This document shows, piece by piece, positions 3,183-29,382 of a stretch of DNA of 61,145 nucleotides. Both the position numbers and the translations under genes were made by a program. The notes beneath the pieces are model-generated. The model had not been told where the DNA came from, did no database searches, and worked only from the letters and a program-made list of their open reading frames with translations. Source of the DNA: Burkholderiaceae bacterium (lineage in GTDB: Bacteria > Pseudomonadota > Gammaproteobacteria > Burkholderiales > WYBJ01); assembly GCA_011525945.1 (NCBI GenBank), contig WYBJ01000071.1:1-61145 (forward strand), read 5' to 3'. Position 1 is the first letter of the stretch, and the number at the start of each line of letters is the position of its first letter.

Positions 3183-4013
3183 ATGGCCTCGCGCACCGCA
3201 TACAAAGCCATCATCCTGAGCGCCGGGCAGGGCAGCCGGCTCCTGCCCCATACCGAGCACGTTCCCAAGTGTCTGCTGGCATTGAACGGGTGCAGCTTGC
3301 TCGAATGGCAGCTGCAAAATCTCGCCGAGGCGGGTGTCCAAGAGGCCGTGGTCGTGACCGGCTTTCGCGACGACCTCGTGCGCCAAGAGATCGAGAGCCG
3401 CGCGCCTCGGTCCATGCAGGTCAGCACGCTCTTCAATCCCTTCTACAAGCTCGCCGACAATCTGGCGAGCTGCTGGATGGCGCGCGCAGAGCTCGCCGGC
3501 GCCTGCCTGATTCTCAACGGCGACACCTTGTTCGAGCCGGAAATCGCGCGCCGGCTGCTGGCGGCGCCGGACGCCCCGATCACGGTTACGATCGACCGCA
3601 AGTCAGCCTACGATGCCGACGACATGAAGGTGCACGATCATGGCAGCCGCATGATGGCTATCGGCAAGGCGTTGCCGGCGGGCGAGGTGACGGGCGAATC
3701 GATCGGCTTCCTGCGCTTCAATGCCGCGGGCGCCGCCCGGTTCGTCGCCGAGCTCGAGCACATCATGCGCACCCCGGAGGGCGCGAAGCTCTGGTATCTG
3801 TCGGCGATCGATCGCCTGGCGAAAGCCGGGGTGGATGTGCGCGTGGCGTCGATCGAGACGCTGCAATGGGCCGAGCTCGACTTTTCCGCCGATCTCGCGC
3901 GCTGTCGCGCAATCGCTGCTGCTTGGATCGCCCGGCGCCCGCTCGCCGATCGAAGTGAGTCAGGATTCGGTTTGGACGCGCCCCTCTCCCTGCGGGAGAG
4001 CGGGCGCGGGTGA
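3183..4013 (+). CDS. NTP-transferase (sugar-/alcohol-phosphate cytidylyl/nucleotidyltransferase, LicC/IPCT-like)
   Basis: N-terminal KAIILSAGQGSRL nucleotide-binding loop, then LILNGDTLFE and GESIGFLRF. The last ~12 codons (PLSLRESGRG) are encoded by the REP-like repeat at 3981-4018. Confidence 0.8.
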   Translation: MASRTAYKAIILSAGQGSRLLPHTEHVPKCLLALNGCSLLEWQLQNLAEAGVQEAVVVTGFRDDLVRQEIESRAPRSMQVSTLFNPFYKLADNLASCWMARAELAGACLILNGDTLFEPEIARRLLAAPDAPITVTIDRKSAYDADDMKVHDHGSRMMAIGKALPAGEVTGESIGFLRFNAAGAARFVAELEHIMRTPEGAKLWYLSAIDRLAKAGVDVRVASIETLQWAELDFSADLARCRAIAAAWIARRPLADRSESGFGLDAPLSLRESGRG

Positions 4014-4018
4014 GGGAG
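3981..4018. repeat. REP-like GC-rich hairpin repeat, copy A
   Basis: Sequence cccctctccc-tgc-gggagag-cgggcgcgggtgagggag. It has a 7-bp stem (ctctccc/gggagag) followed by a ggtgaggga tail. Same architecture as the copies at 4101-4134 and 45321-45372. Confidence 0.6.
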
Positions 4019-4070
4019 TCGTCGGCGCGGCGCGTGATCTCCCCCACCGTCGGTCCCTTTCCATGAACTT

Positions 4071-4086
4071 GCCCGCATCAGCGGGC
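4071..4086. terminator. hairpin between convergent genes (possible bidirectional terminator)
   Basis: gcccgc-atca-gcgggc forms a perfect 6-bp GC stem midway between the stops at 4013 (+) and 4155 (-). There is no clear U-tract, hence the low confidence. Confidence 0.35.
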
Positions 4087-4100
4087 ACACGACGCTCGCC

Positions 4101-4134
4101 TCTGTCCCTGGGAAGGGGTTGGGGGTGAGGGAAG
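4101..4134. repeat. REP-like repeat, copy B
   Basis: Sequence tctgtccctgggaaggggttgggggtgagggaag. The 21-mer aggggttgggggtgagggaag is identical to 45352-45372. Confidence 0.65.
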
Positions 4135-4154
4135 ACAAGCCGCCGGATCCGAGC

Positions 4155-4940
4155 TCAGAGCTTATCCGCGAGCGCGCGTACGAGCTCGAGATCGGCCGGC
4201 TTGTCGACGTCGATCGCCGCGCGCCCGTCGGCCAACTCCACGGCGCGAATGCTCGTGCCGGAAAGCGTCCCCAGCCGCGCGAGCGCATCGTCGAGGCGCA
4301 GTCGGCCGAGGCGGTAGCGCAGCGCCGCGCCGATTCCCAGGCGCAGCATCATCTTGAGCGGTGCTTTGCGATGCGCCTCGATCTCTCCCCAGAGGCGCAC
4401 GGCGCGTTCGGCGCTGGGGCGCTGGAAGCAAAAGAGATTGCAGCCCGAGTAATCGCCATCGGCGAAGCGAAGGTAGGTGCGTTGCGTTGCAGGCGCGCAC
4501 GCGACTACCGCGTCCTTGCGCGCGAGCGCGAGGGTCACATCGGCCTCGGGCGGGCAGGCGTCGAGAAACGCACCCAGCCACTGCGGCATGAGCAGTGCAT
4601 GATCGGCGGTGGTGACGACGAGCGGCGTGCCCTCGCGCTCGAGCACGGCAGCCACGCTGGCGCTCGGGCTGTACGCGGCCGGTACGATGGCAACCGGTTT
4701 CGGGCATCGTGGGGCGCGTAGCCCGGGTAGCGCCGATAACGCTTCCGGGCGCTCGATCGCGATGAGGATGCGGCTCACGGCGGGTACGGCGGCCAGTGCA
4801 GCCACGACGCGCTCGATCATCGTAGCACCGGCAACCTCGATCAGCGCCTTATGACTCACGCCGGCATATCTTGCGAGGGGATCGCCGTCTGGCCGGCTGC
4901 CGGCGAGCACGAGGGCACTGAGCCCGTTCTCCGCCTTCAA
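4155..4940 (-). CDS. MobA-like (GT-A fold) NTP-transferase domain protein
   Basis: Motifs SALVLAGSRPDGDPLA, EVAGATMIERVV and VVTTADHALL. Start set at TTG (complement 4938-4940), which overlaps the upstream stop as TTGA. The rest of track ORF 4155..5318 runs out of frame inside the upstream gene. The start is uncertain. Confidence 0.7.
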   Translation of the reverse strand: MKAENGLSALVLAGSRPDGDPLARYAGVSHKALIEVAGATMIERVVAALAAVPAVSRILIAIERPEALSALPGLRAPRCPKPVAIVPAAYSPSASVAAVLEREGTPLVVTTADHALLMPQWLGAFLDACPPEADVTLALARKDAVVACAPATQRTYLRFADGDYSGCNLFCFQRPSAERAVRLWGEIEAHRKAPLKMMLRLGIGAALRYRLGRLRLDDALARLGTLSGTSIRAVELADGRAAIDVDKPADLELVRALADKL

Positions 4941-6058
4941 GCGAGCGCCTTCTGGTAGATCCGGTAAGTCTTGTAGGGAACCGCGCCGAGCGTTTCGATC
5001 ACGCGCCGCATCGGCCGGTTGTCCTCCAGGATCCAGGAAAGCTCGACTTGCCGCACGCCGCGCGCTCGGGCGCCCGTGCGCAGCCGCTCGATGATGCCGT
5101 ACGCAAGTATGCCGCCGAGCACACCACCCTGGTACTGCGGTCGGATACCCATGAGCGGAACGCGTGCGGAGCGGGTTCCGCGCTTCAAGCGCACGAGCAG
5201 GCGCAACCAATTGAGCGGTAACAGACGGCCGTCGAAGCCGGCGATCGCCTCGTTGAGGTTCGGCAGCAGAATCCCGAATCCCACCGCTTTGCCGTCGATC
5301 TGTGCAATCGCGACACAACTCGGTTGAATCAAGGGCTTCAACGCCTTCGCCATGTGGCGGATCTCAGCCGCGGTGAACGGAATGAAGCCCCAGTTCGCGG
5401 ACCAGGCGGCGTTGAAGATCTCGGTGACGAGGTCGAACTCCTCGATGTAGCGGCGCATGTCGAGGGTGCGTACCGCGATCGCTCCGGGTGCTCGCGTATC
5501 GATGAGCCGGCGCGCGGCCGGCGGCAGATCGCGTTCGAGGTCGTACAGGTAGGCGATCGTGTCCTTCGCCTTGGCGTAGCCGCAAGCTTCCAGGCGCCGC
5601 GCCGCGTACGGCGGATCGTGCGCCATCATCATCATCGGCGGCGTGCCGAAGCCGTCGACGAGCAGGCCGCTTTCCTCGTTGATGGATAGATTGAAAGGGC
5701 CCAGTGCGCGATTTCGTCCGCGCGCAGACAGCCACGCCTCGGCTGCGCCAAACAGTGCCGCGAACGTGTCGGCGTCATCCTCGGCCGCGATCAGCCCGAA
5801 GTGGCCGTCCGCGTCCGGTGCGAGCCGGTCGACCTGGGCGCTAATGCGCCCGACATCCCGGCCTGCGCGTTGCGCCAGGAAGAACTGCGCTTCGGCGTGC
5901 TGAAAGTAGGGGTTGTGCCGCGGCGAGAGCGCCTGACTGCGCTCCAGATGCAGCGGCGTGACAAAGCACCGATCGGCCGCGTACAGTCGCGCGGGCAAAC
6001 GGATGAAGCGATCGAACTGCGAGCGCGTGCGCACCGGGACTACGGTTACGCCGCTCAT
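4937..6058 (-). CDS. GNAT-fold acyltransferase (~373 aa); candidate N-acyltransferase of the lipid island
   Basis: Begins MSGVTVVPVRTRSQFDRFIRLPARLY, with MMMAHDPPYAARRLEACGY and a GNAT-like motif-A region GIRPQYQGGVLGGILAYG. The ATG overlaps the upstream stop (ATGA at 6055-6058). The upstream 194 codons of the track ORF are Arg-rich shadow. Confidence 0.75.
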   Translation of the reverse strand: MSGVTVVPVRTRSQFDRFIRLPARLYAADRCFVTPLHLERSQALSPRHNPYFQHAEAQFFLAQRAGRDVGRISAQVDRLAPDADGHFGLIAAEDDADTFAALFGAAEAWLSARGRNRALGPFNLSINEESGLLVDGFGTPPMMMMAHDPPYAARRLEACGYAKAKDTIAYLYDLERDLPPAARRLIDTRAPGAIAVRTLDMRRYIEEFDLVTEIFNAAWSANWGFIPFTAAEIRHMAKALKPLIQPSCVAIAQIDGKAVGFGILLPNLNEAIAGFDGRLLPLNWLRLLVRLKRGTRSARVPLMGIRPQYQGGVLGGILAYGIIERLRTGARARGVRQVELSWILEDNRPMRRVIETLGAVPYKTYRIYQKALA

Positions 6059-7269
6059 CGGGGCTTGGAGCTCGCCGCGGGTGGGAACAGGAACCCGACC
6101 CAGACGGTTCGCAGCGTATGCCAAGCGAATGTCAGTGCCTGCCAGGCCGTGACCAGGATCAGTCCCGCGTCGCCAGTGCCGAGTGCGAGCGCGATCGCCA
6201 TGATCGTCATGGTGATGTTGCGGCGCGCGATCACGGCGCGTGCCAGCGCGTCGAGGCGCGTGGCCGCATGAAGCGCGGACCCGAGCTTGTATCGGGCGAT
6301 CCCGAGCACCAGTCGGTCGGCGACATAGAACACGATCAGCCATACGGCGGCGAGGTACATCGGATCGGCGAGCGTGCGCGCCCCCAGGCCCCAGGCCCAG
6401 GCGAAATACCAGAACGGCGGGTGCACTTGATCGAGTCCGTGGTCGAGAACGTTGCCGATCTTCGACTCGGTGAGCATCAGGCGCGCCACCTTGCCGTCGA
6501 CGCTGTCGAGCACGCTCATGGCGTAGGCGCACACGAAGCCGGCGAACCAATGTCCACCCGCCCACAGCGGTACGGCTGCGAATGCGAGCACTACCGACAG
6601 CGCCGTCAGCACGTTGGGGTGGACGCCGAGTGCGGTGCACACGCGCACGAGCGGCCAGACCAGCGGCGGATACACCCAGCGTGTCAGCAGGTCGGTCGAG
6701 CCTTTGTAGTTATCCCAGAAGAGCTGGCGCTCGAGCCGCCTGCGTGTGTCGGCATCCTCGACCACGTACTGCCACCAGGGAAGCGTGCGGCGCAGCTTGT
6801 CGATGTAGGCCGGGAAAGCGCGCTCGTCCAAAGGCGCGATCTTGCCGCCGGCGAGCAACGCATCGGCCACCGCGCTCAACGTGGTTGCTTCAGCGGGAAT
6901 GGCGTCGGCGTGCGAGCGATCCAGGCACAGGGCGGCGGCGCGCTGCGCGCCTTCGCCGCGCGCCGCCACACAGGGGCGAGCCGAAGCAAGAAAGCGGATC
7001 AGACGCGGGTCGGTGACGTGCGCGCCATCCACGGCGACGAGCGCTCCGCGAGCGTCGCGTAGTGCGCGCCGCAGCCGTTCGCCCAGCGGCGCCGTGCCGC
7101 AATCGGCACGCGCGCGGGGCCAGGCAGACTGTGCCGCACCGGCGCCGGACAGCATCACCGAATCGCCGGGCGCCAGATGACCGACGCTACGGCGCAGGCG
7201 CTCGAGTGGCGGCACGCCGAAGAGCGCTTGCGCCCGCGGCAGATTGCTTGTTTCGATCCAGAGGTTCAT
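6055..7269 (-). CDS. CDP-alcohol phosphatidyltransferase with ~190-aa N-terminal soluble extension (paralog 1)
   Basis: Exact signature D-G-x2-A-R-x8-G-x3-D-x3-D in DSVDGKVARLMLTESKIGNVLDHGLDQVHP. Multiple TM segments follow. ATGA overlap with the upstream gene at 7266-7269. Confidence 0.88.
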   Translation of the reverse strand: MNLWIETSNLPRAQALFGVPPLERLRRSVGHLAPGDSVMLSGAGAAQSAWPRARADCGTAPLGERLRRALRDARGALVAVDGAHVTDPRLIRFLASARPCVAARGEGAQRAAALCLDRSHADAIPAEATTLSAVADALLAGGKIAPLDERAFPAYIDKLRRTLPWWQYVVEDADTRRRLERQLFWDNYKGSTDLLTRWVYPPLVWPLVRVCTALGVHPNVLTALSVVLAFAAVPLWAGGHWFAGFVCAYAMSVLDSVDGKVARLMLTESKIGNVLDHGLDQVHPPFWYFAWAWGLGARTLADPMYLAAVWLIVFYVADRLVLGIARYKLGSALHAATRLDALARAVIARRNITMTIMAIALALGTGDAGLILVTAWQALTFAWHTLRTVWVGFLFPPAASSKPR

Positions 7270-8333
7270 CGGCGTTCGGCGAAATGAAGCTGCAGCAGTC
7301 CGATCGCGGAGAATAGCAGCGGCGCGGCGAGCGCGGCGACGACCGCGGGTATGCGTCCCGTCGTTCCGAGTGCAGCCATGAAGCCGTCGCACAGCAGGAA
7401 TGCGAGGCCAAGCCCAAGGGCAAGCAGCAGGGCGCCGGCTTCGTTGTTGCGACGCGGCAGCCCGCGCGCCGCCGGCAATGCGAGCAACAGCATGATGAAC
7501 GGCGCAAGCGGCAGCACGAACGAACGCACGAGTGCCGTCTGGTAGTAGCTCAGCGGCTGACTTGCGATGCGCTCGCCTCCGAGCACATCGATCAGCGCCG
7601 CGCTGGAGAGGTTCGGGCGCGCGATGTTGGCGCGGCGAACGTCATCCGGAGTGAGATTGGTCTGCCAGAGCGATATCGGTTCATCGGCACGAGGAACCGT
7701 CGCGCCCGGAACGACCAGTCGCTGGACACCTTCGAGCCGCCAGGCGCCGTGTTGCCATTGCGCGGACCGCGCTGCGATGCGCTCGGTGAGCAGGGTATTG
7801 TCACCGCGGACGTAAATGCGAACGCCGCCGAGGCGTTCGCCGTCGGCGGATGCGGTCAGATAGGATACCGGTCCCGTACTGGTGCGAAGCCAGCTCGGTT
7901 GCGGCGTATCATCGCGCGGCGCCGTGGCGGTCCACCAGGACTGCAACGCGGCTTCGGTATCGGGTACGACGGCTTGCGACAAGGCGATGTGCGTCATCGC
8001 CACGACCAGCGGAACGGGCAGCAGGTAGACGACGATCTGTTTCAGATTGACCCCGGCGGTGCGGATCGCGATCATCTCGTGGTGTCGGGCCAGGTCGTAA
8101 AATGCCCACATCGCACCGAGCAAGGCGGCGAGCGGCAGTGCCACTGTGATCTGGCTTGGCGCGCGCAGCGCGGCGTAGTACGCAAGCCCCTCGATGCCGA
8201 GGCCGCGATCGAGCACATCGGTGGTCATGTCCATCAGCTCGAGCGCTTGCATGAGTGCGATGAAAAAAATCGCAAGCAGCACGGTGTGTACAGCCACGCG
8301 CCGGCGCAGGTAGGCAGCGAGCGCGCCGTTCAT
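7266..8333 (-). CDS. LptG-like permease (YjgP/YjgQ family)
   Basis: Begins MNGALAAYLRRRVAVHTVLLAIFFIALMQALELMD. Organisation is 3 TM segments, a ~130-aa periplasmic domain, then 3 TM segments. It is the second of two tandem YjgP/YjgQ genes. ATGA overlap at 8330-8333. Confidence 0.8.
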   Translation of the reverse strand: MNGALAAYLRRRVAVHTVLLAIFFIALMQALELMDMTTDVLDRGLGIEGLAYYAALRAPSQITVALPLAALLGAMWAFYDLARHHEMIAIRTAGVNLKQIVVYLLPVPLVVAMTHIALSQAVVPDTEAALQSWWTATAPRDDTPQPSWLRTSTGPVSYLTASADGERLGGVRIYVRGDNTLLTERIAARSAQWQHGAWRLEGVQRLVVPGATVPRADEPISLWQTNLTPDDVRRANIARPNLSSAALIDVLGGERIASQPLSYYQTALVRSFVLPLAPFIMLLLALPAARGLPRRNNEAGALLLALGLGLAFLLCDGFMAALGTTGRIPAVVAALAAPLLFSAIGLLQLHFAERR

Positions 8334-9520
8334 CGCCGCCTCCCGCGCGCGAGGCCACGCGCATGCCGCAACGCTTCGCCCAGCCGGCTCTCGGCCCGGG
8401 TGAGCGGATTGTCGCCGGGCCAAGCGAGACTCGCGCGGAACAGCCAAAGGCAAAGCAGCGCGAATGCGACGAGCGGCAGCCACACCGACACTACGGCATC
8501 GGCGCGACCCGATTCAGCCAGGCTTTCGCCAAACTGCAGGCTGTGGTTGAGCACCAGCAAGGCGAGCGCGGTGAATACGGCGCCGGCGGCACGCCGGCCG
8601 CGTTTTGCCGCCATGCCGAGCGGAATGGCGAGCAGCGGCAGCAACGGCAGCACCGCCGAGCGTGCGAGGCGGCCGTGGAATTCACCCGCGAGGCGGGACG
8701 GGGCGATATCGGTTGCACCGCCGTGCATGTCGGCCCAGAGCTCGGGCAGCGTGAGCTCGCGCACCGAACCGCCGCGGGGGCGAAAAGTTGGCGCCTTGGG
8801 ATTGAAGTCCGCGTTGATCACCGCTTTCGTGAAGCGACCGAACCACGCCTTGCCCGGTTCGTACTCGCGCACGAGCAGGCCGTCTTCGAGTTCGAGCAGC
8901 AGGCGTCCGTCATCCGCGGGCACGAGTTCGCCTCGAGGCGCGGTCGTGATTTCCTCGCCGTCGCCCACGCGCCGCTGCACGAACACGCCTTGCAGGTGGC
9001 GCTTGTCGGGCGCGACCGCCTCGGCGTGGAAGACGAAGCCGCGGCCCGCCTTGCCGAAGCGATTCTCTTCCACTCGGGCATCCCAGCGGGCGTTCAGCGC
9101 CGCGTATACCTCGGCGCGGTAGGCGTAGCGGCTGAGCGGCTGCAGATGGCCGAAGAGGTAGAGGCTGAACACGGCGAGCCCGACGGCGAACACGAAGTAC
9201 GGCGCAGCCACACGCACGAGCGAGCGGCCAGAGGCGAGCACGATGTCGAGCTCGCTATCGTCGCTCAATCGAGCGAGTGCGAGGAACATGGCGACCGTGA
9301 AAGCCGCCGGCAGAGCGAGGCCGAGATAGTGCGGCAGCAGGTGCGCCGCCATGCGGAACACCGATGTGACCGGAGCGCCCGTGGCCGCGACCAGATCGAA
9401 CAGCCGCAGCAGGCGCTCGAGCAGTTGCGCAACCAGGATTGCGCCGAGGACGAAGCCGAGCGGGCCCATGAGGGCCCGCAACAGGTAGAAGTCCAGCCGG
9501 TACCCGCCCCTGGGCCGCAA
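8330..9520 (-). CDS. LptF-like permease (YjgP/YjgQ family)
   Basis: Begins RLDFYLLRALMGPLGFVLGAILVAQLLERLLRLFD, with IVLASGRSL. Same 3TM-periplasmic-3TM layout as its neighbour. The track start is a TTG at 9520, and the exact start is uncertain. Confidence 0.8.
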   Translation of the reverse strand: MRPRGGYRLDFYLLRALMGPLGFVLGAILVAQLLERLLRLFDLVAATGAPVTSVFRMAAHLLPHYLGLALPAAFTVAMFLALARLSDDSELDIVLASGRSLVRVAAPYFVFAVGLAVFSLYLFGHLQPLSRYAYRAEVYAALNARWDARVEENRFGKAGRGFVFHAEAVAPDKRHLQGVFVQRRVGDGEEITTAPRGELVPADDGRLLLELEDGLLVREYEPGKAWFGRFTKAVINADFNPKAPTFRPRGGSVRELTLPELWADMHGGATDIAPSRLAGEFHGRLARSAVLPLLPLLAIPLGMAAKRGRRAAGAVFTALALLVLNHSLQFGESLAESGRADAVVSVWLPLVAFALLCLWLFRASLAWPGDNPLTRAESRLGEALRHARGLARGRRR

Positions 9521-14102: not shown

Positions 14103-14236
14103 GTCGTCACGAGGCGGGCGGCGAATGCCGGTGGCTTGATGATGCGGCGCATATTACTATCGACGCGCTGGAACCGTATTCCCGCGCCACCGCTCGCCGC
14201 GCGGGCGTGCCTTTGCCATCATCTGACGCGCCGACC

Positions 14237-22010: not shown

Positions 22011-23775
22011 GCACGATCGCGCGTGCCGCCGAAGCCGCAGGCAGCGGCGCGGCGGCGCGGACCTCGCGATCCTCCACCCGGTAGAGGCGATCGGCGATTC
22101 TCATGAGCCCCTCCTGGTGTGCGACCGCAAGCATGGTGAGACTGCCTTTGAGGTGGCACAGCGTTTCGAGCACGGCGGCCTGGGCTTGGGCATCCAGATT
22201 GCTGGTGGCTTCGTCGAGGATGAGCAGGCGCGGCTTGTGGATGAGCGCCCGGGCGATCGCCAGGCGCTGGCGCTGGCCGCCGGAAAGTCGCGAGCCGCCT
22301 TCGCCGATGGGCGTGTGCACGCCTTGCGCCATCGCTTCGACGAATTCGAGGGCATCGGCCGCACGCAACGCCGCTCTGAGCGCTTCCTCCGGCACCGCCT
22401 CGCCGAGCGTCACGTTGTAGGCTACCGATTCGTTCAGCAGGATCGATTCCTGCGGCACATAGCCGATCTGGCCGCGCCAGGCGCGAAGATCCATCTCGGC
22501 GAGCGCAACGCCATCGACGAGAATGCGACCGCGGTCGGGTTGCAGCAGTCCGACCACCAGGTCGAGCACGGTGGTCTTGCCGGCACCCGAGGGACCGACC
22601 AGGACGGTGAGTTCGCCCGCGGCAATGACGAACGACTGGTCGCGCACCACCATGGTATCGTCATGGCCGAAGCTCACGTTCTCGAAGCGGATCTCGCGCT
22701 CGAGCTCGACCAGGCGCGAGCCGCCGGCGGATTCGCGTTCATCGTACGCCGCCTCGATCGCCGCGGTTATGGACCAATAGGCGCTCTCGCGCATCGCGAC
22801 CTGCTGGAAGGCACGCTGGCTCTTCGACAGGTAGTTCACGACGCGCGCGAGCAGGAACAGCATCACAAGCAGGTTCGCCATCGGCATCTTCAGTACGACC
22901 AGACCGAGGTAGAAGCCGACGCAAACCATGATCGCGAGCAGCGGCTCCTGCAGCGCGGAGAGCGCCTCCTTGGCGACCACCTGTCGTCGCAGCGCGCGCC
23001 GCAGTTGGCGCGTGAGATCGGACAGCAGCGCCTCGATATGACTTTCGCGCGCCATTGCCTTGAGCGGTTTGGCGGCGGCAAGACGACTGCCGACCGCCGC
23101 CAGCAGCGATTTGAACAGCTCCGTCTGATGGCGACTCGCGCGCCGCGAATTCCGGATCAGGCGGCTCAAGGCGAGCAGCAGCAGTGCGCCCGCGAGCAGC
23201 GCAGCGATGCCCGCCGGGGCCGAAATCGACAGCGCAATGCCGAGATAGATGACCGCGTTGAGCGCGAGCGCCAGCATCTCGGCGGTGTGCTGGAAGGCCT
23301 CGGCGCCGCGCTGTGCCTCGGCGCCGAGCGATGCGGACAGCTTTCCGACCGACTGTTGTACGTAATAGCGCCAGTGCGCATTGGCTACGGCGCGGATCAG
23401 TGCGAGGCGCAGATCCGATGCGATCCGCGCCACGGTATATCCGACCTGTCGGTTGGCGAGCAGGGCGAGCGCCGCTTTGCCCGCGATCAGCAGGACCGCG
23501 AGCACGAGCAGGTTGCGCGGCGTCGCGGGCACGTGCAGGAACTCGGTTACGCGAAGCGCGATGCGTTGCGGCAGACTTGCAGCGCCGTGCGCTTCGCCGC
23601 CGGCGAGCGAGAGCATCGACAGCAGCATCGACAGACCGAGCCCGTCGAGCAAGCCGGCGACGAACACCGCGCCGAGCCCGGCCGCGCTGCGGCCGGGATA
23701 GCGCCGCAGCACGGCGCAGATCATCGCGAAGCTGCCGCGGCTGCGGATCGCGGCAGCAGCAGGCAAGGCATTCAT
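22003..23775 (-). CDS. ABC exporter, fused permease/ATPase (MsbA-like half transporter)
   Basis: N-terminal 6-TM region. Walker A GPSGAGKTT, signature LSGGQRQRLAIARAL, Walker B LLILDEATSNLD. Start ATG overlaps the upstream stop (ATGA 23772-23775). 8-nt overlap with the downstream gene. Confidence 0.88.
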   Translation of the reverse strand: MNALPAAAAIRSRGSFAMICAVLRRYPGRSAAGLGAVFVAGLLDGLGLSMLLSMLSLAGGEAHGAASLPQRIALRVTEFLHVPATPRNLLVLAVLLIAGKAALALLANRQVGYTVARIASDLRLALIRAVANAHWRYYVQQSVGKLSASLGAEAQRGAEAFQHTAEMLALALNAVIYLGIALSISAPAGIAALLAGALLLLALSRLIRNSRRASRHQTELFKSLLAAVGSRLAAAKPLKAMARESHIEALLSDLTRQLRRALRRQVVAKEALSALQEPLLAIMVCVGFYLGLVVLKMPMANLLVMLFLLARVVNYLSKSQRAFQQVAMRESAYWSITAAIEAAYDERESAGGSRLVELEREIRFENVSFGHDDTMVVRDQSFVIAAGELTVLVGPSGAGKTTVLDLVVGLLQPDRGRILVDGVALAEMDLRAWRGQIGYVPQESILLNESVAYNVTLGEAVPEEALRAALRAADALEFVEAMAQGVHTPIGEGGSRLSGGQRQRLAIARALIHKPRLLILDEATSNLDAQAQAAVLETLCHLKGSLTMLAVAHQEGLMRIADRLYRVEDREVRAAAPLPAASAARAIVHG

Positions 23776-24809
23776 AGGCTGAGGAAATGCACGCGCGGCC
23801 CCGCGCGGATCGTCACCGGCAGGGCCGGGTCGACATCGAACGACTCGCCGTCCAGAGTGTAGCTCGACAGTCCCGAAGCGCCCAGGGCATCGCAACGGCC
23901 GCTCAGATACCCTCGTTCGGCATCCATGGCGGGCGTGAACCGGCCAGTGATCAACCACGGCAGCCGCGCCCAGAAACTCGGGCCGCGTGCCGCCACGGCC
24001 GTGAAGCGCACACCGCCGTGGCCATGCCGAGCGTACGGGTCGAGAACGCCCTGACGCTTCTGCAGCGTGCTGGCGATGAACCAGCGAGCGGGCTTCGCCA
24101 GCATTTCACGCCCAGGCACCTCGACGCGCAAATCATCCAACGGCGGTTCGCGCATGCCGAGCATGGCGGGCAGCGCCAGCGCAGCGAGGCTGCACGCGGT
24201 GCCAAGATCGCTCTGGCGCAGTCGTCCGCTGCCGTCGCTGCGATGGCGGTGACACGCCCGGATCGCGCGGTCGACGAGTCCGGCTGCGAGAAAAAAACCA
24301 TGTCGCGCCGGCGCCTTAGGCTGCTCGATGCGCAGCACCTGCCGTACTGTGACACCGAACGGTACACCATCGCGCCAGCGCTCGAGCGCGCGCTCGAGCT
24401 TCGGCAGTACGTCGCCGCGCCCGCCGAGGTCGCCCGCCGTGAGATTGGTGCGACCGCCGCCGAGCAGCAGCAGCCGGGGTTGCACGACGCCGGCGGGAAG
24501 CAGGGCAAGCCGGTCCACGAAGGCCTGTACCGTGCCGTCGCCGGCGAGGAGAAAAACCGTCTGTTGGTCACGCCGCAGGATGAGGTCGAGCGTCGCGGCG
24601 ATGCCGCTCGGGTCGGCGGCGTGAATCACTTCGATACCGTGCGCGCCGGCGAGCCGGGCAGCGTGCTGCGCGAGGCGGTCGCGCGCGGCACTGTGGCTCA
24701 TCGGGTTGACCACGAGACAGGGCCTATGCGGTGCGGATTGCGGTGGTCGCGCCGTCGCCGCGGCCCGCGTGCTCACGGCGTTCGCGGCAGGCCGGGATTT
24801 TGCGCCCAT
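23772..24809 (-). CDS. DAG-kinase catalytic-domain (YegS/BmrU-like) lipid kinase
   Basis: Motifs CLVVNPMS, FLLAGDGTVQAF (GDGT) and LLLLGGGRTNLTAGDLG. An alternative start, GTG at 24776, would form a GTGA overlap with the upstream stop. Confidence 0.78.
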   Translation of the reverse strand: MGAKSRPAANAVSTRAAATARPPQSAPHRPCLVVNPMSHSAARDRLAQHAARLAGAHGIEVIHAADPSGIAATLDLILRRDQQTVFLLAGDGTVQAFVDRLALLPAGVVQPRLLLLGGGRTNLTAGDLGGRGDVLPKLERALERWRDGVPFGVTVRQVLRIEQPKAPARHGFFLAAGLVDRAIRACHRHRSDGSGRLRQSDLGTACSLAALALPAMLGMREPPLDDLRVEVPGREMLAKPARWFIASTLQKRQGVLDPYARHGHGGVRFTAVAARGPSFWARLPWLITGRFTPAMDAERGYLSGRCDALGASGLSSYTLDGESFDVDPALPVTIRAGPRVHFLSL

Positions 24810-25951
24810 CGTTGCATCGCCGATCGTTGCGCCGGCGTCGCCTTCGCGTTGCGCCACAGCTCGGCCAGCGCTGCGAAGAAACTGCGCCGCCCGGTCGCGT
24901 GATAAGGAGCGTCTCGTGGCAGCAGCTCGCTCAGGCGCCGGTGCGCTCTGCCGAGATTGTGATAGGGAAGCGCGGGGAACAGGTGATGCAGTGCGTGATA
25001 ACGCAGGCCGACGGGAAAGAGCAGCACCGTGAGCCAGGTCTGACCGGTGATGTTGATGGAGTCTTGCATCTGTTCGAGGTGACTCATGCGCTCGCCGCGG
25101 TTGCCGTAGCGATGGGCGGCGAGATTGCGTACCCAGTTGAGCCCGAGTGCGCCGGCGACCAGCAAGTAACCCATGAAGATGTCTGCCACGCCGACGATAC
25201 CGGCAGCGAGCAGGCCGGCGAGGCTCGCCAGGTAGGCGAAAGAAATCGCCTCCACGATGACGAGATGGCGCTCGTCGCGATGCGGGAAGCGTTTCGCGTA
25301 GTAGGGATTCGACACCGCCGCCGAGGCGCGCGTAAGCACCCATTCGCGCAGCCTGCGATTGAGCCAGGACAGCGGCCCGAGCAGGCCCAGGCGTACGAGC
25401 ATGAAAAGCGGCAGCAGCGGAACCTGGGCGAGGTACTTGATCGTTTCGCGAAGCGGCGAAGCTCCCAGCGGAAGGTATTCGCCGTCCTCGGGTGTGCCGA
25501 AATGGCGGGCGTCGTGGTGGTCGGCATGGTTGCGATAGAAGATCCACGGCATGAGGAACGGGATGCCCACGGCGAGGTTCCACGCAGGCCCGAACCATCG
25601 CGCCTGATCGGGGCGCATGTGCACCAGCTCGTGGATGAACGTTCCGCTGCGGAAAAACAGCAGGATGCTCGCGACGTACGCTACCGCTTGGACGAGGCTC
25701 CACGTCGGGGCGAGAAAGTATACGGCCGTGAAACCCCAGGCTGCCGCGCTGGTCAGCGAGAAGTCGATCCAGTAGATGGGCGCGGAGCGCGCGTAGAGGT
25801 CACTCACCGCGGCGCGCGCTTGCTCGAACCAAGCGGGCATTTCACGGGCCTTCCCCCCGACCTGGCCTGCATCGGGAGGAGCGCCGTTGCCCGCGCCCTG
25901 TTGGCCGGGACCGCCTCCGGCGCGGCTACTTTCACTGACAACCTGCGGCAT
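24773..25951 (-). CDS. membrane fatty-acid/sphingolipid desaturase-hydroxylase family protein
   Basis: Three His boxes: HELVH, HADHHD and HALHHLF. Several TM segments. The start could be the inner ATG at 25840. Confidence 0.85.
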   Translation of the reverse strand: MPQVVSESSRAGGGPGQQGAGNGAPPDAGQVGGKAREMPAWFEQARAAVSDLYARSAPIYWIDFSLTSAAAWGFTAVYFLAPTWSLVQAVAYVASILLFFRSGTFIHELVHMRPDQARWFGPAWNLAVGIPFLMPWIFYRNHADHHDARHFGTPEDGEYLPLGASPLRETIKYLAQVPLLPLFMLVRLGLLGPLSWLNRRLREWVLTRASAAVSNPYYAKRFPHRDERHLVIVEAISFAYLASLAGLLAAGIVGVADIFMGYLLVAGALGLNWVRNLAAHRYGNRGERMSHLEQMQDSINITGQTWLTVLLFPVGLRYHALHHLFPALPYHNLGRAHRRLSELLPRDAPYHATGRRSFFAALAELWRNAKATPAQRSAMQRWAQNPGLPRTP

Positions 25952-26032: not shown

Positions 26033-26050
26033 TACAATCTCGCGTCGAAT
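26033..26050. promoter_or_regulatory. AT-rich inverted repeat (operator-like) in the divergent promoter region between the two lipid operons
   Basis: gattgta-tagg-tacaatc has perfect 7-bp arms. It lies in the 134-bp gap between the divergently transcribed genes starting at 25951 (-) and 26086 (+). It stands out against the GC-rich background. Confidence 0.4.
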
Positions 26051-26085
26051 TTCGGCGGAACCATGAATCTGCGGGCGCGGGGGGT

Positions 26086-27957
26086 GTGTCGTTGCGCGAA
26101 GACAGGAGCAATAAGGCCAAAGAGGAGGCAACCGCTACCGTCAGCGGGATTGCGCTACGCCGAGCAGATTTCTCGACCTTGACCGAAGCGCTCGATTACG
26201 CGGCACAAGGTTGCACCGGCTTCAATTTCTACGACGGCAGGGGCGAGCTCGCCTGCGTTCTGCCGTATCGTGAGCTGCGCGAGGAGGCAATTCGCCTCGC
26301 ACGCCGGCTGGCGGCATTCGACCGTGGCAGTCGCGTCGCGCTCGTGGCGCACACACATCGCGACTTCGCGGTGATGTTTTTTGCCTGCCAGTACGCGGCG
26401 CTCGTACCGGTGCCGTTGGCGGCGGCAATTCACCTCGGCGGGCGCAACGCCTATATCCGGCATCTGCGCGAGCTGGTACGCGATTGCGGCGCCGTGGCCG
26501 CGTTTGCGCCGGCCGATTTCGTCGGGATGCTGCACGAGGCGGCCGGCGATCTCGCCGTGGCGCATGTCGGCACGCTGGAGGATTTCATGGCGCTGCCGGC
26601 AGGCACCGAGCTGCCGGCGCCGCCTGCGGCACACGAGCTCGCCTACCTGCAATACACCTCGGGCAGCACGCGTTTCCCGCGCGGGACGATGATCACGCAG
26701 GCCGCCGCGATGGCGAACCTGGAAGGCATTTTCAACCACGGGTTCGAGATCGCTGCGGACGACCGCTTCTGCTCCTGGCTACCCTTCTATCACGATATGG
26801 GTCTGGTCGGAATCGTGCTCGGCTGCGTCGCCACGCAGCGCTCGGTGGATTATCTCGCGACGCGCGATTTCGCCATGCGACCGCGCCTGTGGCTGAAGCT
26901 CATTGCGCAGAACCGGGGCACCATCTCGTTCAGCCCGCCGTTTGGCTATGCGCTGGCTGCTCGCCGCGTGCGACCGAAGGATGCCGACGGGCTCGATCTG
27001 TCGAGCTGGCGCGTCGCGGGCGTCGGCGCCGAAATGATCCACCCCGAGTGGCTGACGAACTTCGCCGAAGCCTTGGCGCCCGCGCGCTTCGATCCGCGCG
27101 CATTTCTACCCTGCTACGGCATGGCCGAGTGCGCCCTGGCGGTGAGCTTCGTTCCCGTCGGCGGCGGGTTCGAGATCGATTACGTCGATGCCGAGCGCTT
27201 GGCGCGCTCCAATGAGGCGATGCACGCATCCGCTGGCGCCTCGGAGCGGAAACGTTCCGGCTTCGTCAATTGCGGCAAGGCGCTGCCCGGTTTCGAAGTC
27301 GAGATTCGCGATGAAGCGGGCCGCCTCTTGCCCGATCGCCGCTGCGGGCGCATCTTCTTGCGCGGGTCGAGCGTCATGTCGGGTTATTTCGGCAACCCGG
27401 AGGCGAGCCGCGAAGTGCTTTCGGAGGATGGATGGCTCAATACCGGCGACCTCGGTTACCGTGTGGATGGGGCGCTCTACCTTACGGGTCGGGCGAAAGA
27501 CCTGCTGATCATCAACGGGCGCAACGTCTGGCCGCAGGACATCGAGCACCTTGCCGAGCAGCAGCCGGAGCTGCGGGCCACAGATACGTCGGCGTTTTCG
27601 ATCGTGAGCGGCGAGGGTGGTGAGGCCGCGGTACTGGTGGTGCAGTGCCGGGAAATGGACTCGGCCTCGGCGGCCTCGCTCGCGCGCCGCCTGCGCCATT
27701 CGGTCCAGGCCGAGTTGGGTATCGAGTGTCTGGTCGATGTCGTCCCCCCGCACACCCTGCCGCGCACCTCGTCGGGGAAGCTCTCGCGCAGCTCCACGCG
27801 CAAGCAGTTCCTCGAGCGCCACGGCGTCGAGCGTGCAAGCGATCTGGCGTGGATTGGAAAGGGTTTCTGCGCCCATCACGCCAGCGCGGGAGCATCGCCT
27901 GTCAGCGCTCGTGGCGCCGATCAGGAGCCTGGCAGCGCCGGCATCAATGCGACATGA
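26086..27957 (+). CDS. fatty acyl-AMP ligase / acyl-ACP synthetase (adenylate-forming enzyme)
   Basis: Motifs YLQYTSGSTRFPRG, NTGDLGY and LPRTSSGKLSRS. GTG start as given in the track. A GAGGAGG at ~26121 leaves the exact start uncertain. Confidence 0.85.
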   Translation: MSLREDRSNKAKEEATATVSGIALRRADFSTLTEALDYAAQGCTGFNFYDGRGELACVLPYRELREEAIRLARRLAAFDRGSRVALVAHTHRDFAVMFFACQYAALVPVPLAAAIHLGGRNAYIRHLRELVRDCGAVAAFAPADFVGMLHEAAGDLAVAHVGTLEDFMALPAGTELPAPPAAHELAYLQYTSGSTRFPRGTMITQAAAMANLEGIFNHGFEIAADDRFCSWLPFYHDMGLVGIVLGCVATQRSVDYLATRDFAMRPRLWLKLIAQNRGTISFSPPFGYALAARRVRPKDADGLDLSSWRVAGVGAEMIHPEWLTNFAEALAPARFDPRAFLPCYGMAECALAVSFVPVGGGFEIDYVDAERLARSNEAMHASAGASERKRSGFVNCGKALPGFEVEIRDEAGRLLPDRRCGRIFLRGSSVMSGYFGNPEASREVLSEDGWLNTGDLGYRVDGALYLTGRAKDLLIINGRNVWPQDIEHLAEQQPELRATDTSAFSIVSGEGGEAAVLVVQCREMDSASAASLARRLRHSVQAELGIECLVDVVPPHTLPRTSSGKLSRSSTRKQFLERHGVERASDLAWIGKGFCAHHASAGASPVSARGADQEPGSAGINAT

Positions 27958-28181
27958 GGGATAGGGCCGAGGTGGAGGAGGTCGTCCGGCAGGCGTTGCG
28001 TGCCGTGCGCACCGAAGAGGTCGATGTCGGCGCGGGCGATGCTCTCGGGCTTGATTCGACGCAGGCGATGGAGCTCATCATGCAGATCGAAGAACGCCTC
28101 GACATCTCCATCCCGGTCGACACGCTGGCCGACTCGCGCACCTTCGATCAGCTTTGCAGCGGCATCATGCGGCTCGACTAG
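27954..28181 (+). CDS. acyl carrier protein
   Basis: 75 aa, with the phosphopantetheine site in ALGLDSTQAMELIMQIEERL. The ATG overlaps the ligase stop (ATGA 27954-27957). Confidence 0.8.
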   Translation: MRDRAEVEEVVRQALRAVRTEEVDVGAGDALGLDSTQAMELIMQIEERLDISIPVDTLADSRTFDQLCSGIMRLD

Positions 28182-28185
28182 GTAA

Positions 28186-29382
28186 GTGAGTCTGCTCGAC
28201 AAATTCGAGGCACTGCGATCGCTGCAAATGGCGCTGGCGCACGCGGCGAGCGTGCCGGCGGTTGCCACTCCGATGGACGAAGTGCACTCGGCGCGGGAAG
28301 CCACGGTGCAGGGACGCCGATTGTTGCTCGCCGGCAGCAACAACTATCTCGGCCTCACCTTCGATGATGCCTGCCGCGCGGCCGCGATCGCGGCGATCGA
28401 AGCCTACGGTACGGGCAGCACCGGCTCGCGCATGGCCAGCGGCAACTATCGCCTACACCGCGGCCTGGAACGTGCGTTGGCCGATGCGTTCGGTTGGCCG
28501 GCCGGGATTGTCTTCTCGACCGGATACCAGGCGAATCTCGGTACGCTCTCGGCCCTGGGCGGTGCGGGCGATTACCTCCTGGTCGACAGTGACAGCCATG
28601 CCAGCATTCACGACGGCTGTCGCCTGAGCGCGGCGACCACGATCCGCTTTCGCCACAACGATCCGGACAATCTCGACCGGCGGCTCACGCGTCTGGGCGA
28701 CGAGGCCCGGCGCACGCTGATCGTGGTGGAAGCGCTCTACAGCACGCTGGGCGACCGCGCGCCGCTCGATGAGATCGCGGACATCAAGGCGCGCCACGGC
28801 GCCTGGCTGATCGTCGATGAAGCGCATTCGTTCGGCCTGTTCGGTGCCCGCGGGGTGGGATTGTGCGAGGAGCTCGACCTGCTCGATGAGGTCGACTTCA
28901 TCGTCGGCACCTTTTCCAAGAGCCTGGGCGGGGTGGGCGGGTTCTGCGTCAGCCGGCATGCCGAGTTCGAGCTGTTGCGCATGGCAAGCCGCCCCTACAT
29001 CTTCACCGCCTCACCGGCGCCCGCGGTGATCGGCGCCACGCGCGAGGCGCTGCGACGCGTGCTCGCCGGTGCCGACCTGCGGCGGCGCCTCTGGCGGCAC
29101 GCGCATCGCCTGTATGGCGAGCTCGACAAGCTGGGTTTCAGTCTCGGCTCGACAACCCCCGGGCCCATCGTCGCCCTGGTGTACGCCGAGCGCGACACCG
29201 CCATCGCCCATTGGCAGGCGCTGCTCGATGCCGGGATCTACACCAATCTCATGGTGCCGCCTGCGACACCCGGCGGGCTGAGCGTGGTGCGCATAAGCCT
29301 CTCCGCCGCGCACACCGACGAGGACATCGCGTACATTCTACACAGCCTGGAAGCGCTTGCCCCCGCGCGCGTGGCGACTTGA
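28186..29382 (+). CDS. alpha-oxoamine synthase (serine palmitoyltransferase / 8-amino-7-oxononanoate synthase family)
   Basis: Motifs GSNNYLGL, VDEAHSFG and the PLP-lysine motif GTFSKSLGGVGG. The gene starts 4 nt after the ACP stop. Confidence 0.88.
   Translation: MSLLDKFEALRSLQMALAHAASVPAVATPMDEVHSAREATVQGRRLLLAGSNNYLGLTFDDACRAAAIAAIEAYGTGSTGSRMASGNYRLHRGLERALADAFGWPAGIVFSTGYQANLGTLSALGGAGDYLLVDSDSHASIHDGCRLSAATTIRFRHNDPDNLDRRLTRLGDEARRTLIVVEALYSTLGDRAPLDEIADIKARHGAWLIVDEAHSFGLFGARGVGLCEELDLLDEVDFIVGTFSKSLGGVGGFCVSRHAEFELLRMASRPYIFTASPAPAVIGATREALRRVLAGADLRRRLWRHAHRLYGELDKLGFSLGSTTPGPIVALVYAERDTAIAHWQALLDAGIYTNLMVPPATPGGLSVVRISLSAAHTDEDIAYILHSLEALAPARVAT

Follow-up and report, generated by a model that had tools for sequence, protein, structure and literature searches.

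The closest described system is the sphingolipid gene cluster of Caulobacter crescentus, which comprises 17 genes (CC_1152–CC_1168, also CCNA_01210–01226; Olea-Ozuna 2024, PMC11324152). These genes encode a nucleotidyltransferase (CC_1152), a MobA/CofC-like protein (CC_1153), bCerS (CC_1154), LptG2 and LptF2 (CC_1155 and CC_1156), a HIT protein (CC_1157), a metallophosphoesterase (CC_1158), a cytidine diphosphate (CDP)-alcohol transferase (CC_1159), a DAGK-type ceramide kinase (CC_1160), a Tam41-like protein (CC_1161), the products of spt, acpR, cerR and aasR (CC_1162–1165), a Wzx-like flippase (CC_1166), a TagF-like protein (CC_1167) and LptC2 (CC_1168); genetics are available for CC_1152, 1153 and 1158 (PMC11324152). 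Here we analyse a 26-kb lipid locus at positions 3183–29382 of contig WYBJ01000071.1 (assembly GCA_011525945.1) from an uncultured Burkholderiaceae bacterium; the whole stretch of 61,145 nucleotides is hereafter called the window. The comparison suggests that the locus is, with high probability, a Caulobacter-type sphingolipid cluster, the product of which would be anionic, a phosphoglycerate sphingolipid bearing additional sugar and acyl groups, with an ATP-binding cassette (ABC) exporter to flip it and LptF2/LptG2 to carry it outward.

Several proteins that build the head group have been studied in Caulobacter: CpgB (CCNA_01218) phosphorylates ceramide, CpgC (CCNA_01219) is required for ceramide phosphoglycerate (CPG) and CpgA (CCNA_01217) attaches a second phosphoglycerate (Zik 2022, PMC9393093), and CpgD (CCNA_01210) produces CDP-glycerate (Dhakephalkar 2025, PMC12275187). 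The substrate and product of CpgC are still unsettled in the literature (PMC12275187), and cytidylyl activation of ceramide-1-phosphate has been proposed on domain grounds by Olea-Ozuna et al. (PMC11324152). Sphingolipids partly replace lipopolysaccharide (LPS) in Caulobacter and are the colistin target there (PMC9393093), and according to the Klein laboratory no sphingolipid flippase or transporter has been identified so far (PMC11087976). Orthologous clusters have been reported in beta- and gamma-proteobacteria (PMC9393093, PMC11324152, PMC12275187), where LptC2 and the Wzx-type flippase are missing (PMC11324152). Among these, the CC_1152 orthologues of Pseudomonas luteola (hereafter P. luteola) and Azotobacter vinelandii are 50–54% identical to CC_1152 (PMC11324152 Table S2), and the published P. 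luteola orthologues are FOB45_16305 (cerS, CC_1154), 16310 (CC_1153), 16315 (CC_1152), 16320/16325 (Lpt), 16330 (CC_1159), 16335 (CC_1160) and 16340 (CC_1161) (PMC11324152 Table S2F).

About two thirds of the locus (g01–g11 and g19–g23, genes being numbered by position) matches the Caulobacter cluster family for family. The core and head-group activities were shown in Caulobacter by others, and we assign them to the window by homology and gene order. Caulobacter orthology was inferred through the published tables and synteny with P. luteola: by tblastn, the P. luteola locus (L034) contains, in the same order, counterparts of g03 (47% identity), g02 (40%), g01 (49%) and, after a gap, g09 (42%), g19 (27%) and g10 (34%), i.e. 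27–49% identity across 84–100% of length. This order match therefore points to g10 as CpgC, g09 as CpgA, g19 as CpgB, g01 as CpgD and g03 as bCerS.

The genes were defined by a codon-usage gene caller trained on the long open reading frames (ORFs) of the window. Raw ORF lists are full of spurious frames because of the high GC content (∼67%), and gene calling based on GC at third codon positions was dropped in favour of the codon-usage model since it mis-assigned strands in this 67%-GC DNA. The caller gives 23 genes with short or overlapping junctions, and the NCBI gene calls on a matching contig of a metagenome-assembled genome (MAG; JADZDQ010000090.1, GCA_020850975.1, Burkholderiales) agree over the part that they cover, from ∼18186 onward. 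The genes form seven strand-defined units: a plus gene (3183–4013), a minus operon of seven genes with four 4-nt start/stop overlaps (10942→4155), a plus pair (11014→13055), a minus gene (14102←13113), a plus operon (14237→19793), a minus operon (∼25840→19800) and a plus operon (26086/26092→29382). An earlier, sequence-only reading of this DNA had given the same strand layout but counted ∼25 genes in four transcription units; its operon coordinates hold in general, except that some starts are shorter than the longest ORF (e.g. 25840 rather than 25951).

We then examined the ceramide core. The oxoamine synthase gene g23 (28186–29382, plus strand; counterpart CC_1162) encodes a protein that passes the serine palmitoyltransferase (SPT) equivalog of NCBIfam (NF047599, 561.9 bits against a cutoff of 500) and falls below the cutoffs for bioF (327.7 vs 426) and Kbl (270 vs 460). 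Its top matches in the PDB are the Sphingomonas SPT structures 2x8u and 2jg2 (E 1e-114 to 1e-110, 373–387 bits), followed by Sphingobacterium SPT (244 bits), KBL (∼195), BioF (∼185), the cysteate (capnine-type) acyltransferase (162) and CqsA (114). Judged by sequence, g23 is thus an Spt and not a BioF or Kbl; the latter identity, named beforehand as a ground for giving up a sphingolipid interpretation, fails the NCBIfam cutoffs of both families. In the same operon and next to spt lie g21 (26092–27957, plus; counterpart CC_1165), an AasR-like fatty acyl-AMP ligase/acyl-ACP synthetase (NF006624, 766 bits against a cutoff of 600; Pfam AMP-binding), and, between ligase and spt, g22 (27954–28181, plus; counterpart CC_1163), an AcpR-like dedicated acyl carrier protein (ACP; Pfam PP-binding, E 6.8e-10).

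The remaining core genes lie in other units of the locus. The monocistronic g11 (13113–14102, minus; counterpart CC_1164) encodes a CerR-like ceramide reductase with an epimerase/NDUFA9-type fold (Pfam Epimerase, E 1.5e-24), which is 38–65% identical to the epimerase gene product sitting between aasR and acp/spt in other clusters. The g03 protein (4937–6058, minus; counterpart CC_1154) appears to be the bCerS-like ceramide synthase, a GNAT-related N-acyltransferase: it combines a weak Pfam GNAT match with 47% identity, across 99% of the protein, to the P. luteola gene in the place listed for cerS (FOB45_16305), and the PDB sequence search returned nothing significant for it. The membrane fatty-acid desaturase/hydroxylase g20 (24773–25840, minus; Pfam FA_desaturase, E 4.4e-27) belongs to the family class of Caulobacter CC_0202, which is reported to hydroxylate the amide acyl chain (PMC11324152). 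It is 63% identical to its counterparts in Piscinibacter and Variovorax clusters, and the equivalent place in other clusters is taken by non-orthologous LpxO-like, FA_hydroxylase or 2-oxoglutarate (2OG)-Fe(II) oxygenases. In P. luteola, two convergent LpxO-family genes (Asp/Asn beta-hydroxylase, PF05118) occupy 12289–13880 of L034, between the g12 homologue and cpgC.

For the head group, the locus contains candidates for all four Cpg proteins. The g01 protein (3183–4013, plus; counterpart CC_1152/CCNA_01210), a COG1213/LicC-like cytidylyltransferase (Pfam NTP_transf_3, NTP_transferase), is the predicted CpgD-like CTP:phosphoglycerate cytidylyltransferase; its top PDB match is LicC, as reported for CC_1152, and it is 49–55% identical to the genes at the CC_1152 position in the P. 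luteola, Azotobacter and Immundisolibacter clusters. The PDB search for a solved CpgD structure gave only LicC-type relatives. The g19 protein (23772–24713, minus; counterpart CC_1160/CCNA_01218) is, marginally, a DAGK/LCB5-type CpgB-like ceramide kinase by its Pfam DAGK_cat match, and it shares full-length identities of 27–49% with the kinase that other clusters encode between cpgA and cpgC. An accessory trio is present in Caulobacter order: (i) g02 (4155–4940, minus; counterpart CC_1153), a MobA/CofC-like nucleotidyltransferase (Pfam NTP_transf_3, E 2.5e-13) that adjoins the bCerS gene as CC_1153 does; (ii) g07 (9537–9980, minus; counterpart CC_1157), a HIT-family nucleotide hydrolase/transferase (Pfam HIT, 25.1 bits against a cutoff of 21.5) that is 50–70% identical to HIT genes within other clusters; and (iii) g08 (9983–10942, minus; counterpart CC_1158), a calcineurin-like metallophosphoesterase (Pfam Metallophos, E 1.3e-13).

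The CpgC candidate g10 (12093–13055, plus; 320 aa; counterpart CC_1161/CCNA_01219) had no match in Pfam (including Mmp37), NCBIfam or PDB sequence searches. An AlphaFold2 (AF2) model built from 21 homologues reached a predicted local distance difference test (pLDDT) score of 87.8, and its top four Foldseek matches are Tam41 chains (6ig4/6ig2; E 1.4e-8, probability 1.0, template modelling (TM) score 0.49–0.58), with aminoglycoside nucleotidyltransferases as the next matches. Since g10 also shares 34% identity with the gene occupying the FOB45_16340 position in P. luteola, fold and synteny together indicate that it is probably the Tam41/Mmp37-like CpgC protein. The Tam41 fold favours cytidylyl activation (cytidine monophosphate (CMP) activation) of ceramide-1-phosphate for the CpgC step.

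The window has two CpgA-like copies, as compared with one in Caulobacter: g09 (11014–12108, plus; counterpart CC_1159/CCNA_01217; Pfam CDP-OH_P_transf, E 4e-11) and its paralogue g04 (6055–7269, minus). Both match PF01066 and carry the CpgA motif DG(x2)AR(x8-12)G(x3)D(x3)D; g04 is 34% identical to g09 over 348 aa with the DxxDGxxAR...GxxxDxxxD motif intact, and g09 aligns over its full length, at 42% identity, with the gene that occupies the FOB45_16330 position in P. luteola. Variovorax and close metagenomic relatives have also kept the two paralogues, and the duplication suggests longer or mixed head groups. Each of the two proteins also has a soluble N-terminal domain of ∼165–200 aa (11014–11520 and 6670–7269) without a significant family match; the best match of this domain is NTP_transf_4 and is very weak (E 0.2). 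Fused to the membrane transferase, it may serve as a module that binds a nucleotide or a substrate.

Regarding export, the locus contains a second, divergent LptF/LptG pair inside the cluster, g06 (8330–9520, minus; LptF2-like; counterpart CC_1156; Pfam LptF_LptG, 205.4 bits) and g05 (7266–8333, minus; LptG2-like; counterpart CC_1155; 195.8 bits). Both are below the NCBIfam equivalog cutoffs (LptF 194.6 against 230 bits; LptG 217 against 240 bits) and are therefore consistent with dedicated second Lpt copies. Where Caulobacter has a Wzx-type flippase, the window has an ABC exporter, g18 (22003–23775, minus), with fused transmembrane and ATPase domains (Pfam ABC_membrane, ABC_tran). Its best NCBIfam match is the HepA family (261 bits, below the cutoff of that model), and we rejected it as an MsbA orthologue because it scores far below the MsbA cutoff (TIGR02203, 213.8 bits against 602); the architecture of an MsbA-like exporter, as read earlier, is there, whereas MsbA orthology is not. 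A counterpart of g18 stands beside spt, aasR or a g12 homologue in 18 of 56 loci (see below). Given the statement of the Klein laboratory cited above (PMC11087976), this gene is a useful flippase candidate. Together with g17 (21045–22010, minus), an LpxL/PatA-family acyltransferase (Pfam Lip_A_acyltrans, 71.8 bits) for which the PIM acyltransferase is the best NCBIfam match and all models including those of LpxL stay below cutoff, g18 lies in one operon with the ceramide kinase g19. On their profile scores, the Lpt, ABC and LpxL-like proteins of the locus look like paralogues dedicated to another lipid rather than housekeeping LPS proteins.

The genes between these modules encode putative decoration enzymes. 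The largest, g12 (14237–16453, plus), specifies a bifunctional glycosyltransferase (GT) of 738 aa with a GT8-like GT-A domain (∼residues 20–250) and an ELM1/GtrOC1 GT-B domain (∼370–738; Pfam Mito_fiss_Elm1, E 1.5e-59); NCBI names the family ELM1/GtrOC1. The N-terminal half has a weak Pfam GT8 match (E 0.11), its NDVD (DxD) motif is invariant across 18 homologues, and a profile of the protein had no detectable sequence similarity to any solved structure in the PDB search. In the AF2 model (pLDDT 84.5), the first domain matches glycogenin and GT8 structures, the second matches the GT-B enzymes MnaA, MGD1, LpxB and GT9, and the model also matches the bifunctional or two-domain proteins WbbM and LARGE1 (Foldseek). 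Two generic glycosyltransferases accompany it. The first is the GT4 enzyme g13 (16504–17724, plus; Pfam Glyco_trans_1_4, Glycos_transf_1, Glyco_transf_4); in Halomonas, Salinicola and Stutzerimonas, the g12 homologue is flanked by a GT4 that shares 66–68% identity with it. The second is the GT2 enzyme g16 (19800–20837, minus; Pfam Glycos_transf_2, E 1.9e-31), which has a GT2 counterpart of ∼55% identity immediately downstream of the g12 homologue in Halomonadaceae, Stutzerimonas and Azotobacter.

The other two decoration genes are more restricted. The g14 protein (17772–18821, plus) has 33 close homologues only among 5.8 billion proteins, in which the E-D-G-G and K-Y-H-P motifs are invariant (E126-D127-G128, H261-P262). 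A profile search yielded 586 more distant representatives, and of 25 sampled, 24 match PF07388 (polysialyltransferase) and four match GT52; g14 itself reaches E 0.25 only in the PF07388/PF07922 profile test, and the PDB sequence search found nothing significant. It appears to be a sialyltransferase-like GT-B enzyme (GT38/GT52-related), restricted to this lineage, and a putative CMP-ulosonic-acid transferase. The S-adenosylmethionine (SAM)-dependent methyltransferase g15 (18861–19793, plus; Pfam Methyltransf_25, Methyltransf_11) is a variable decoration gene: it was found in none of the 56 species loci, and a different gene takes its place in a relative with a 73%-identical g12 homologue (L085). 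Among the 23 proteins, Pfam and NCBIfam searches found no Kdo transferase, heptosyltransferase (GT9), Lpx, Waa or O-antigen gene; Lip_A_acyltrans is the sole LPS-type biosynthetic family in the locus.

Taken together, profile hidden Markov model (HMM; Pfam, NCBIfam), fold or motif tests bear out every family assignment of the sequence-only reading: the acyl-AMP ligase and ACP beside an Spt-like synthase; the GNAT-fold acyltransferase and the epimerase-fold reductase of the CerR class; the DAGK_cat kinase, two CDP-OH_P_transf proteins, two NTP-transferases, HIT and Metallophos proteins, all of which match Pfam, and the Tam41-like cytidylyltransferase; the GT8-ELM1 fusion and the sialyltransferase motifs; and the LptF/LptG-like permeases and LpxL-like acyltransferase. 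Its functional proposal, a sphingolipid with a CDP-alcohol-type head group, decoration and LPS-like export, fits all of the evidence. By contrast, its statement that no described system has this combination is wrong for the core, since the Caulobacter cluster CC_1152–CC_1168 is published (PMC9393093, PMC11324152, PMC12275187).

The same reading had made co-conservation of the genes in related genomes a point to be checked, and the neighbourhoods agree with it, in metagenomic relatives, Variovorax, Piscinibacter and g12-anchored loci alike. Two metagenomic relatives with a g12 homologue of 73–77% identity keep the gene order of the locus. The contig of the relative from the JGI stops just past the g12 gene, so that the right half of the locus is visible only in the relative from the ENA (L085), in which another gene replaces the methyltransferase and the place of the window's desaturase is taken by a 2OG-Fe(II) oxygenase. 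The cultured strain Variovorax sp. RHLX14 contains g01–g10 in the same order and has no glycosyltransferase module; it also has an operon of fatty-acid desaturase, DAGK, ABC and LpxL-like genes at 45–68% identity. Piscinibacter koreensis has the same desaturase-DAGK-ABC-LpxL operon together with CerR, CpgA, CpgC, phosphoesterase, HIT and a g12 homologue. Cluster genes in these two species are 45–70% identical to those of the window (50–52% for the g17 counterpart), and since the operon is kept in both, the LpxL-like and ABC genes are constant components of the cluster as it occurs in Comamonadaceae. Between its cpgC-like gene and the desaturase gene, the Variovorax locus (L086, 10960–11739) also encodes a DUF3108 protein with no counterpart in the window.

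We also analysed the surroundings of g12 across species. Full-length two-domain homologues number 1496 at E < 1e-5, and relatives occur in 385 GTDB species. Neighbourhoods were counted by tblastn of every window protein against 56 g12-anchored species loci with full 10-kb flanks. At least one cluster gene lies within 10 kb of the g12 homologue in 44 of these, and a ceramide- or CpgC-specific gene in 39. By gene, the counts are 32 for bCerS, 29 for the CC_1153-like nucleotidyltransferase, 28 for the CpgC-like gene, 21 each for Spt and the metallophosphoesterase, 20 for LptF and 18 for the ABC exporter; the two flanking controls, ECH and ankyrin, were found in none. The taxa include Geminicoccaceae, Dongiaceae, Betaproteobacteria, Pseudomonas, Azotobacter, Halomonadaceae, Immundisolibacter and MAGs labelled Rokubacteria, Binatia and Myxococcota.

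Gene order around the g12 homologue differs among these groups. In Geminicoccaceae it is the first of nine same-strand genes and is followed by the hydroxylase, bCerS, nucleotidyltransferase, phosphoesterase, LptF, LptG, kinase and CpgC-like genes. The Halomonas order is spt, ABC, GT4 and then a divergent pair of g12 homologue and GT2. In P. luteola the homologue lies just past the published cluster border, with two LpxO-like hydroxylases between it and cpgC and unrelated genes beyond. Two loci contain multiplied glycosyltransferase genes. In Kushneria sinocarnis (L025, 7010–11875), two tandem full-length GT8+ELM1 genes, 41% and 43% identical to g12, are followed by a GT2 gene. In an Immundisolibacter sp. 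MAG (L059, 13035–17933), three GT4 paralogues, 49–53% identical to g13, follow the g12 homologue; this run comes directly after a complete series of cpgD, nucleotidyltransferase, bCerS, HIT, aasR, cerR, acp and spt, and the three paralogues suggest a longer glycan in that lineage.

Several points weigh against a Caulobacter-type cluster with a decorated phosphoglycerate sphingolipid as its product. The source is a MAG, and Caulobacter orthology is indirect, being taken from published tables and P. luteola synteny rather than from direct alignment. Two of the domain matches are slight, namely GNAT in g03 (E 0.01) and DAGK_cat in g19 (24.7 bits against the Pfam cutoff of 23.6). No match to LptC2 (PF06835) or to a Wzx-like flippase (the CC_1166 counterpart) was found among the 23 locus proteins, and the NCBIfam models nearest to g04 and g09 are inositol-phosphate synthases, all below cutoff. 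In addition, in seven of the 56 species the 10-kb flanks of the g12 homologue are free of cluster genes, and in Salinicola, Stutzerimonas, Kushneria and Azomonas, GT4, the g12 homologue and GT2 lie beside housekeeping lptFG-pepA, with spt not within 10 kb.

The last two observations are relevant to whether the locus holds two separate, adjacent pathways, one (g01–g11 and g19–g23) for ceramide phosphoglycerate and the other (g12–g17) for LPS core, lipid A or another surface glycan, co-located because outer-membrane lipid genes cluster. Because the glycosyl module adjoins lptFG-pepA without spt nearby in those four genera, it could act on LPS, and the family names point the same way: in Acinetobacter, GtrOC1 is a glycosyltransferase of the lipooligosaccharide outer core, the late acyltransferases of lipid A make up the Lip_A_acyltrans family, and GT4 and GT2 are generic polysaccharide enzymes. 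We nevertheless regard this arrangement as unlikely. The g12 homologue is near cluster genes, often adjacent or in the same operon, in the large majority of the species loci, which span alpha-, beta- and gamma-proteobacteria, Rokubacteria, Binatia and others; the locus lacks the Kdo, heptosyl, Lpx, Waa and O-antigen genes sought above; and in Variovorax the LpxL-like gene lies within the ceramide-kinase operon where there is no glycosyltransferase module. The GT4-g12-GT2 module of Salinicola peritrichatus (L014) is flanked by a DDE transposase and an insertion sequence (IS) IS605 OrfB/TnpB-like gene (6039–6752, 13500–14591), and its downstream genes are the same as in the Halomonas version with spt, which suggests a broken or rearranged Halomonas-type cluster.

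In view of the inositol-type models nearest to g04 and g09, the head group on the ceramide could also differ from phosphoglycerate and be phosphoinositol, phosphoglycerol or a phospho-sugar, made as in the archaeal/bacterial IPCT/DIPPS or PIP-synthase routes. The models concerned describe archaetidylinositol-phosphate and PIP synthases (E 1e-10 to 1e-13). Bifunctional IPCT/DIPPS aligns with g01 in its cytidylyltransferase half and with g04/g09 in its transferase half, the presence of two CpgA paralogues hints at an additional donor or acceptor, and bacterial sphingolipids are known to differ in their head groups (PMC12275187). However, the inositol-type scores are far under the curated cutoffs, the full set and order of CpgA–D and CC_1153/1157/1158 counterparts are shared with Caulobacter, the product of which is CPG/CPG2, and g01 resembles the gammaproteobacterial CpgD-position genes at the 49–55% identity given above; this makes another head group rather improbable. 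Even less credible, to the point that we give it hardly any weight, is that the pyridoxal phosphate (PLP) enzyme g23 makes a non-sphingoid aminolipid precursor of the BioF, Kbl, capnine or CAI-1 type: alpha-oxoamine synthases do share one fold and g23 matches the bioF and Kbl models with low E-values, but only the SPT equivalog cutoff is passed, SPT structures rank far ahead in the PDB, and the gene is embedded among counterparts of aasR, acpR, cerR and bCerS.

Under the Caulobacter-type sphingolipid reading, AasR (g21) would load a fatty acid on the dedicated ACP (g22), and Spt (g23) would condense acyl-ACP and serine to 3-ketosphinganine, which bCerS (g03) would N-acylate; by reducing the 3-keto group, CerR (g11) would then yield dihydroceramide. 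Hydroxylation of the amide-linked acyl chain is probably the task of g20, the desaturase-family enzyme. The CpgB-like kinase g19 would then form ceramide-1-phosphate, and the CpgC-like g10 would convert it into ceramide phosphoglycerate, most likely via CMP-activated ceramide phosphate. The CpgD-like g01 would supply CDP-glycerate from CTP and phosphoglycerate, and the CpgA-like g09 and its paralogue g04 would add at least one further phosphoglycerate unit or a related phospho-alcohol, with g02, g07 (HIT) and g08 (phosphoesterase) as likely accessory nucleotide-handling enzymes. As for the later steps, g12, g13, g14 and g16 may build a short glycan that g15 methylates, and the LpxL-family g17 may place a secondary acyl chain on the hydroxyl made by g20, or on a sugar. 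These steps would be expected to give an anionic glyco-phospho-sphingolipid that resembles LPS. The ABC exporter g18 would flip it across the inner membrane, and LptF2/LptG2 (g06/g05) with the housekeeping Lpt bridge would extract it toward the outer membrane.

A broader proposal, which we put forward tentatively and at somewhat less than an even chance, is that many Proteobacteria and some other phyla make such an LPS-like lipid, with a ceramide phosphoglycerate anchor that is hydroxylated, LpxL-acylated and extended by a short glycan (GT8+ELM1, GT4 and GT2, with a CMP-ulosonic-acid transferase in this lineage), flipped by an ABC exporter and carried by a second LptFG pair. If so, two steps missing from bacterial sphingolipid biogenesis, glycosylation and flipping, would be supplied by the g12 homologue and the ABC exporter. 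Since GT8+ELM1 accompanies sphingolipid clusters in dozens of species, among them cultured P. luteola, Azotobacter, Halomonas and Piscinibacter, a glycosylated form of these lipids, as yet unreported by lipidomics, is suggested to be widespread. The ABC exporter in the ceramide-kinase operon and LptF2/LptG2 in the cluster are concrete candidates for envelope crossing, and the Tam41 fold of the CpgC counterpart supports CMP activation for the CpgC step. If the glycosyl genes serve LPS, the locus is simply another member of the published cluster family.

GC content is 0.67–0.71 in the locus and 0.61–0.69 in the flanks; this slight rise, and the synteny of the cluster across Comamonadaceae, led us to reject a horizontally acquired island. 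Since base composition is barely raised, 'island' is a description only and does not attest to horizontal transfer. Two bordering genes were rejected as cluster members because neither occurs in any of the 56 g12-anchored species loci: an ECH gene (29422–30186) and, on the minus strand, the gene of a 238-aa ankyrin-repeat protein (2264–2980) that borders the lipid locus. Farther along the window, a four-gene minus-strand operon (36367–42898) encodes VWA/BatA-type proteins of 919 and 619 aa and two more proteins of ∼300–330 aa; it resembles a Bat/aerotolerance-like operon and appears unconnected to the lipid locus. Directly upstream of it and on the same strand (42895–47501), three adjacent genes encode predicted proteins of 534, 262 and 700 aa with no Pfam match at E ≤ 1e-4.

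Finally, we compared the locus with known systems as a whole. The Caulobacter cluster provides family-level counterparts for 16 of the 23 window genes, 15 of them within CC_1152–CC_1168 and one, that of g20 (CC_0202), elsewhere in the genome. The window genes g08, g07, g06, g05, g03 and g02 are collinear with CC_1158 to CC_1153 save for the inserted g04, which stands between g05 and g03. The two arrangements differ in that spt, acp and aasR form an operon of their own in the window and cerR is monocistronic. Caulobacter has LptC2 (CC_1168), the Wzx-like CC_1166 and the TagF-like CC_1167, and the window is without all three; conversely, the window has a second CpgA, the ABC exporter, the LpxL-family acyltransferase, the GT8+ELM1, GT4, GT2 and GT38-like glycosyltransferases and the methyltransferase in addition.

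The clusters of P. luteola and Azotobacter vinelandii (PMC11324152 Fig 7, Table S2) contain the same core and Cpg set and are also without CC_1166–1168. They have a g12 homologue at the cluster edge, although the published description ends at cpgC and omits both the GT8+ELM1 gene and the hydroxylases. They differ from the window in having one CpgA instead of two, no LpxL-like gene in range and a hydroxylase of the LpxO type instead of the desaturase type.

At the level of single proteins and machineries, three further likenesses stand out. The g10 model shares the fold of Tam41, the mitochondrial CDP-diacylglycerol synthase, across ∼275–294 columns, and g10 is predicted to act, as Tam41 does, on a lipid phosphate (ceramide-1-phosphate and phosphatidic acid, respectively), while sequence identity is just 14–15%. 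With its GT8-like GT-A domain and its GT-B domain, the g12 model resembles the bifunctional or two-domain enzymes WbbM and LARGE1, and by name it belongs to the ELM1/GtrOC1 family, but the context of g12 is sphingolipid and not O-antigen or lipooligosaccharide. The LPS machinery (LptF/LptG, MsbA, LpxL) is drawn from the same Pfam families as the window proteins (LptF_LptG, ABC_membrane plus ABC_tran, Lip_A_acyltrans) and would follow the same logic of inner-membrane flipping and then extraction into the Lpt bridge, whereas the four window proteins are all below the NCBIfam equivalog cutoffs.

In brief, homology and gene order place the core, head-group and Lpt genes of the locus in the published cluster family, of which they are a further member. 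The additional module of GT8+ELM1 fusion, other glycosyltransferases, LpxL-like acyltransferase, ABC exporter and second CpgA is conserved, and we found no paper that links the extra genes with bacterial sphingolipids in the literature searched on ELM1/GtrOC1, Betaproteobacteria clusters and Burkholderiales SPT. Relative to that literature, what looks new is confined to the genes for glycosyl, acyl and methyl decoration, the ABC exporter and the additional CDP-alcohol transferase.

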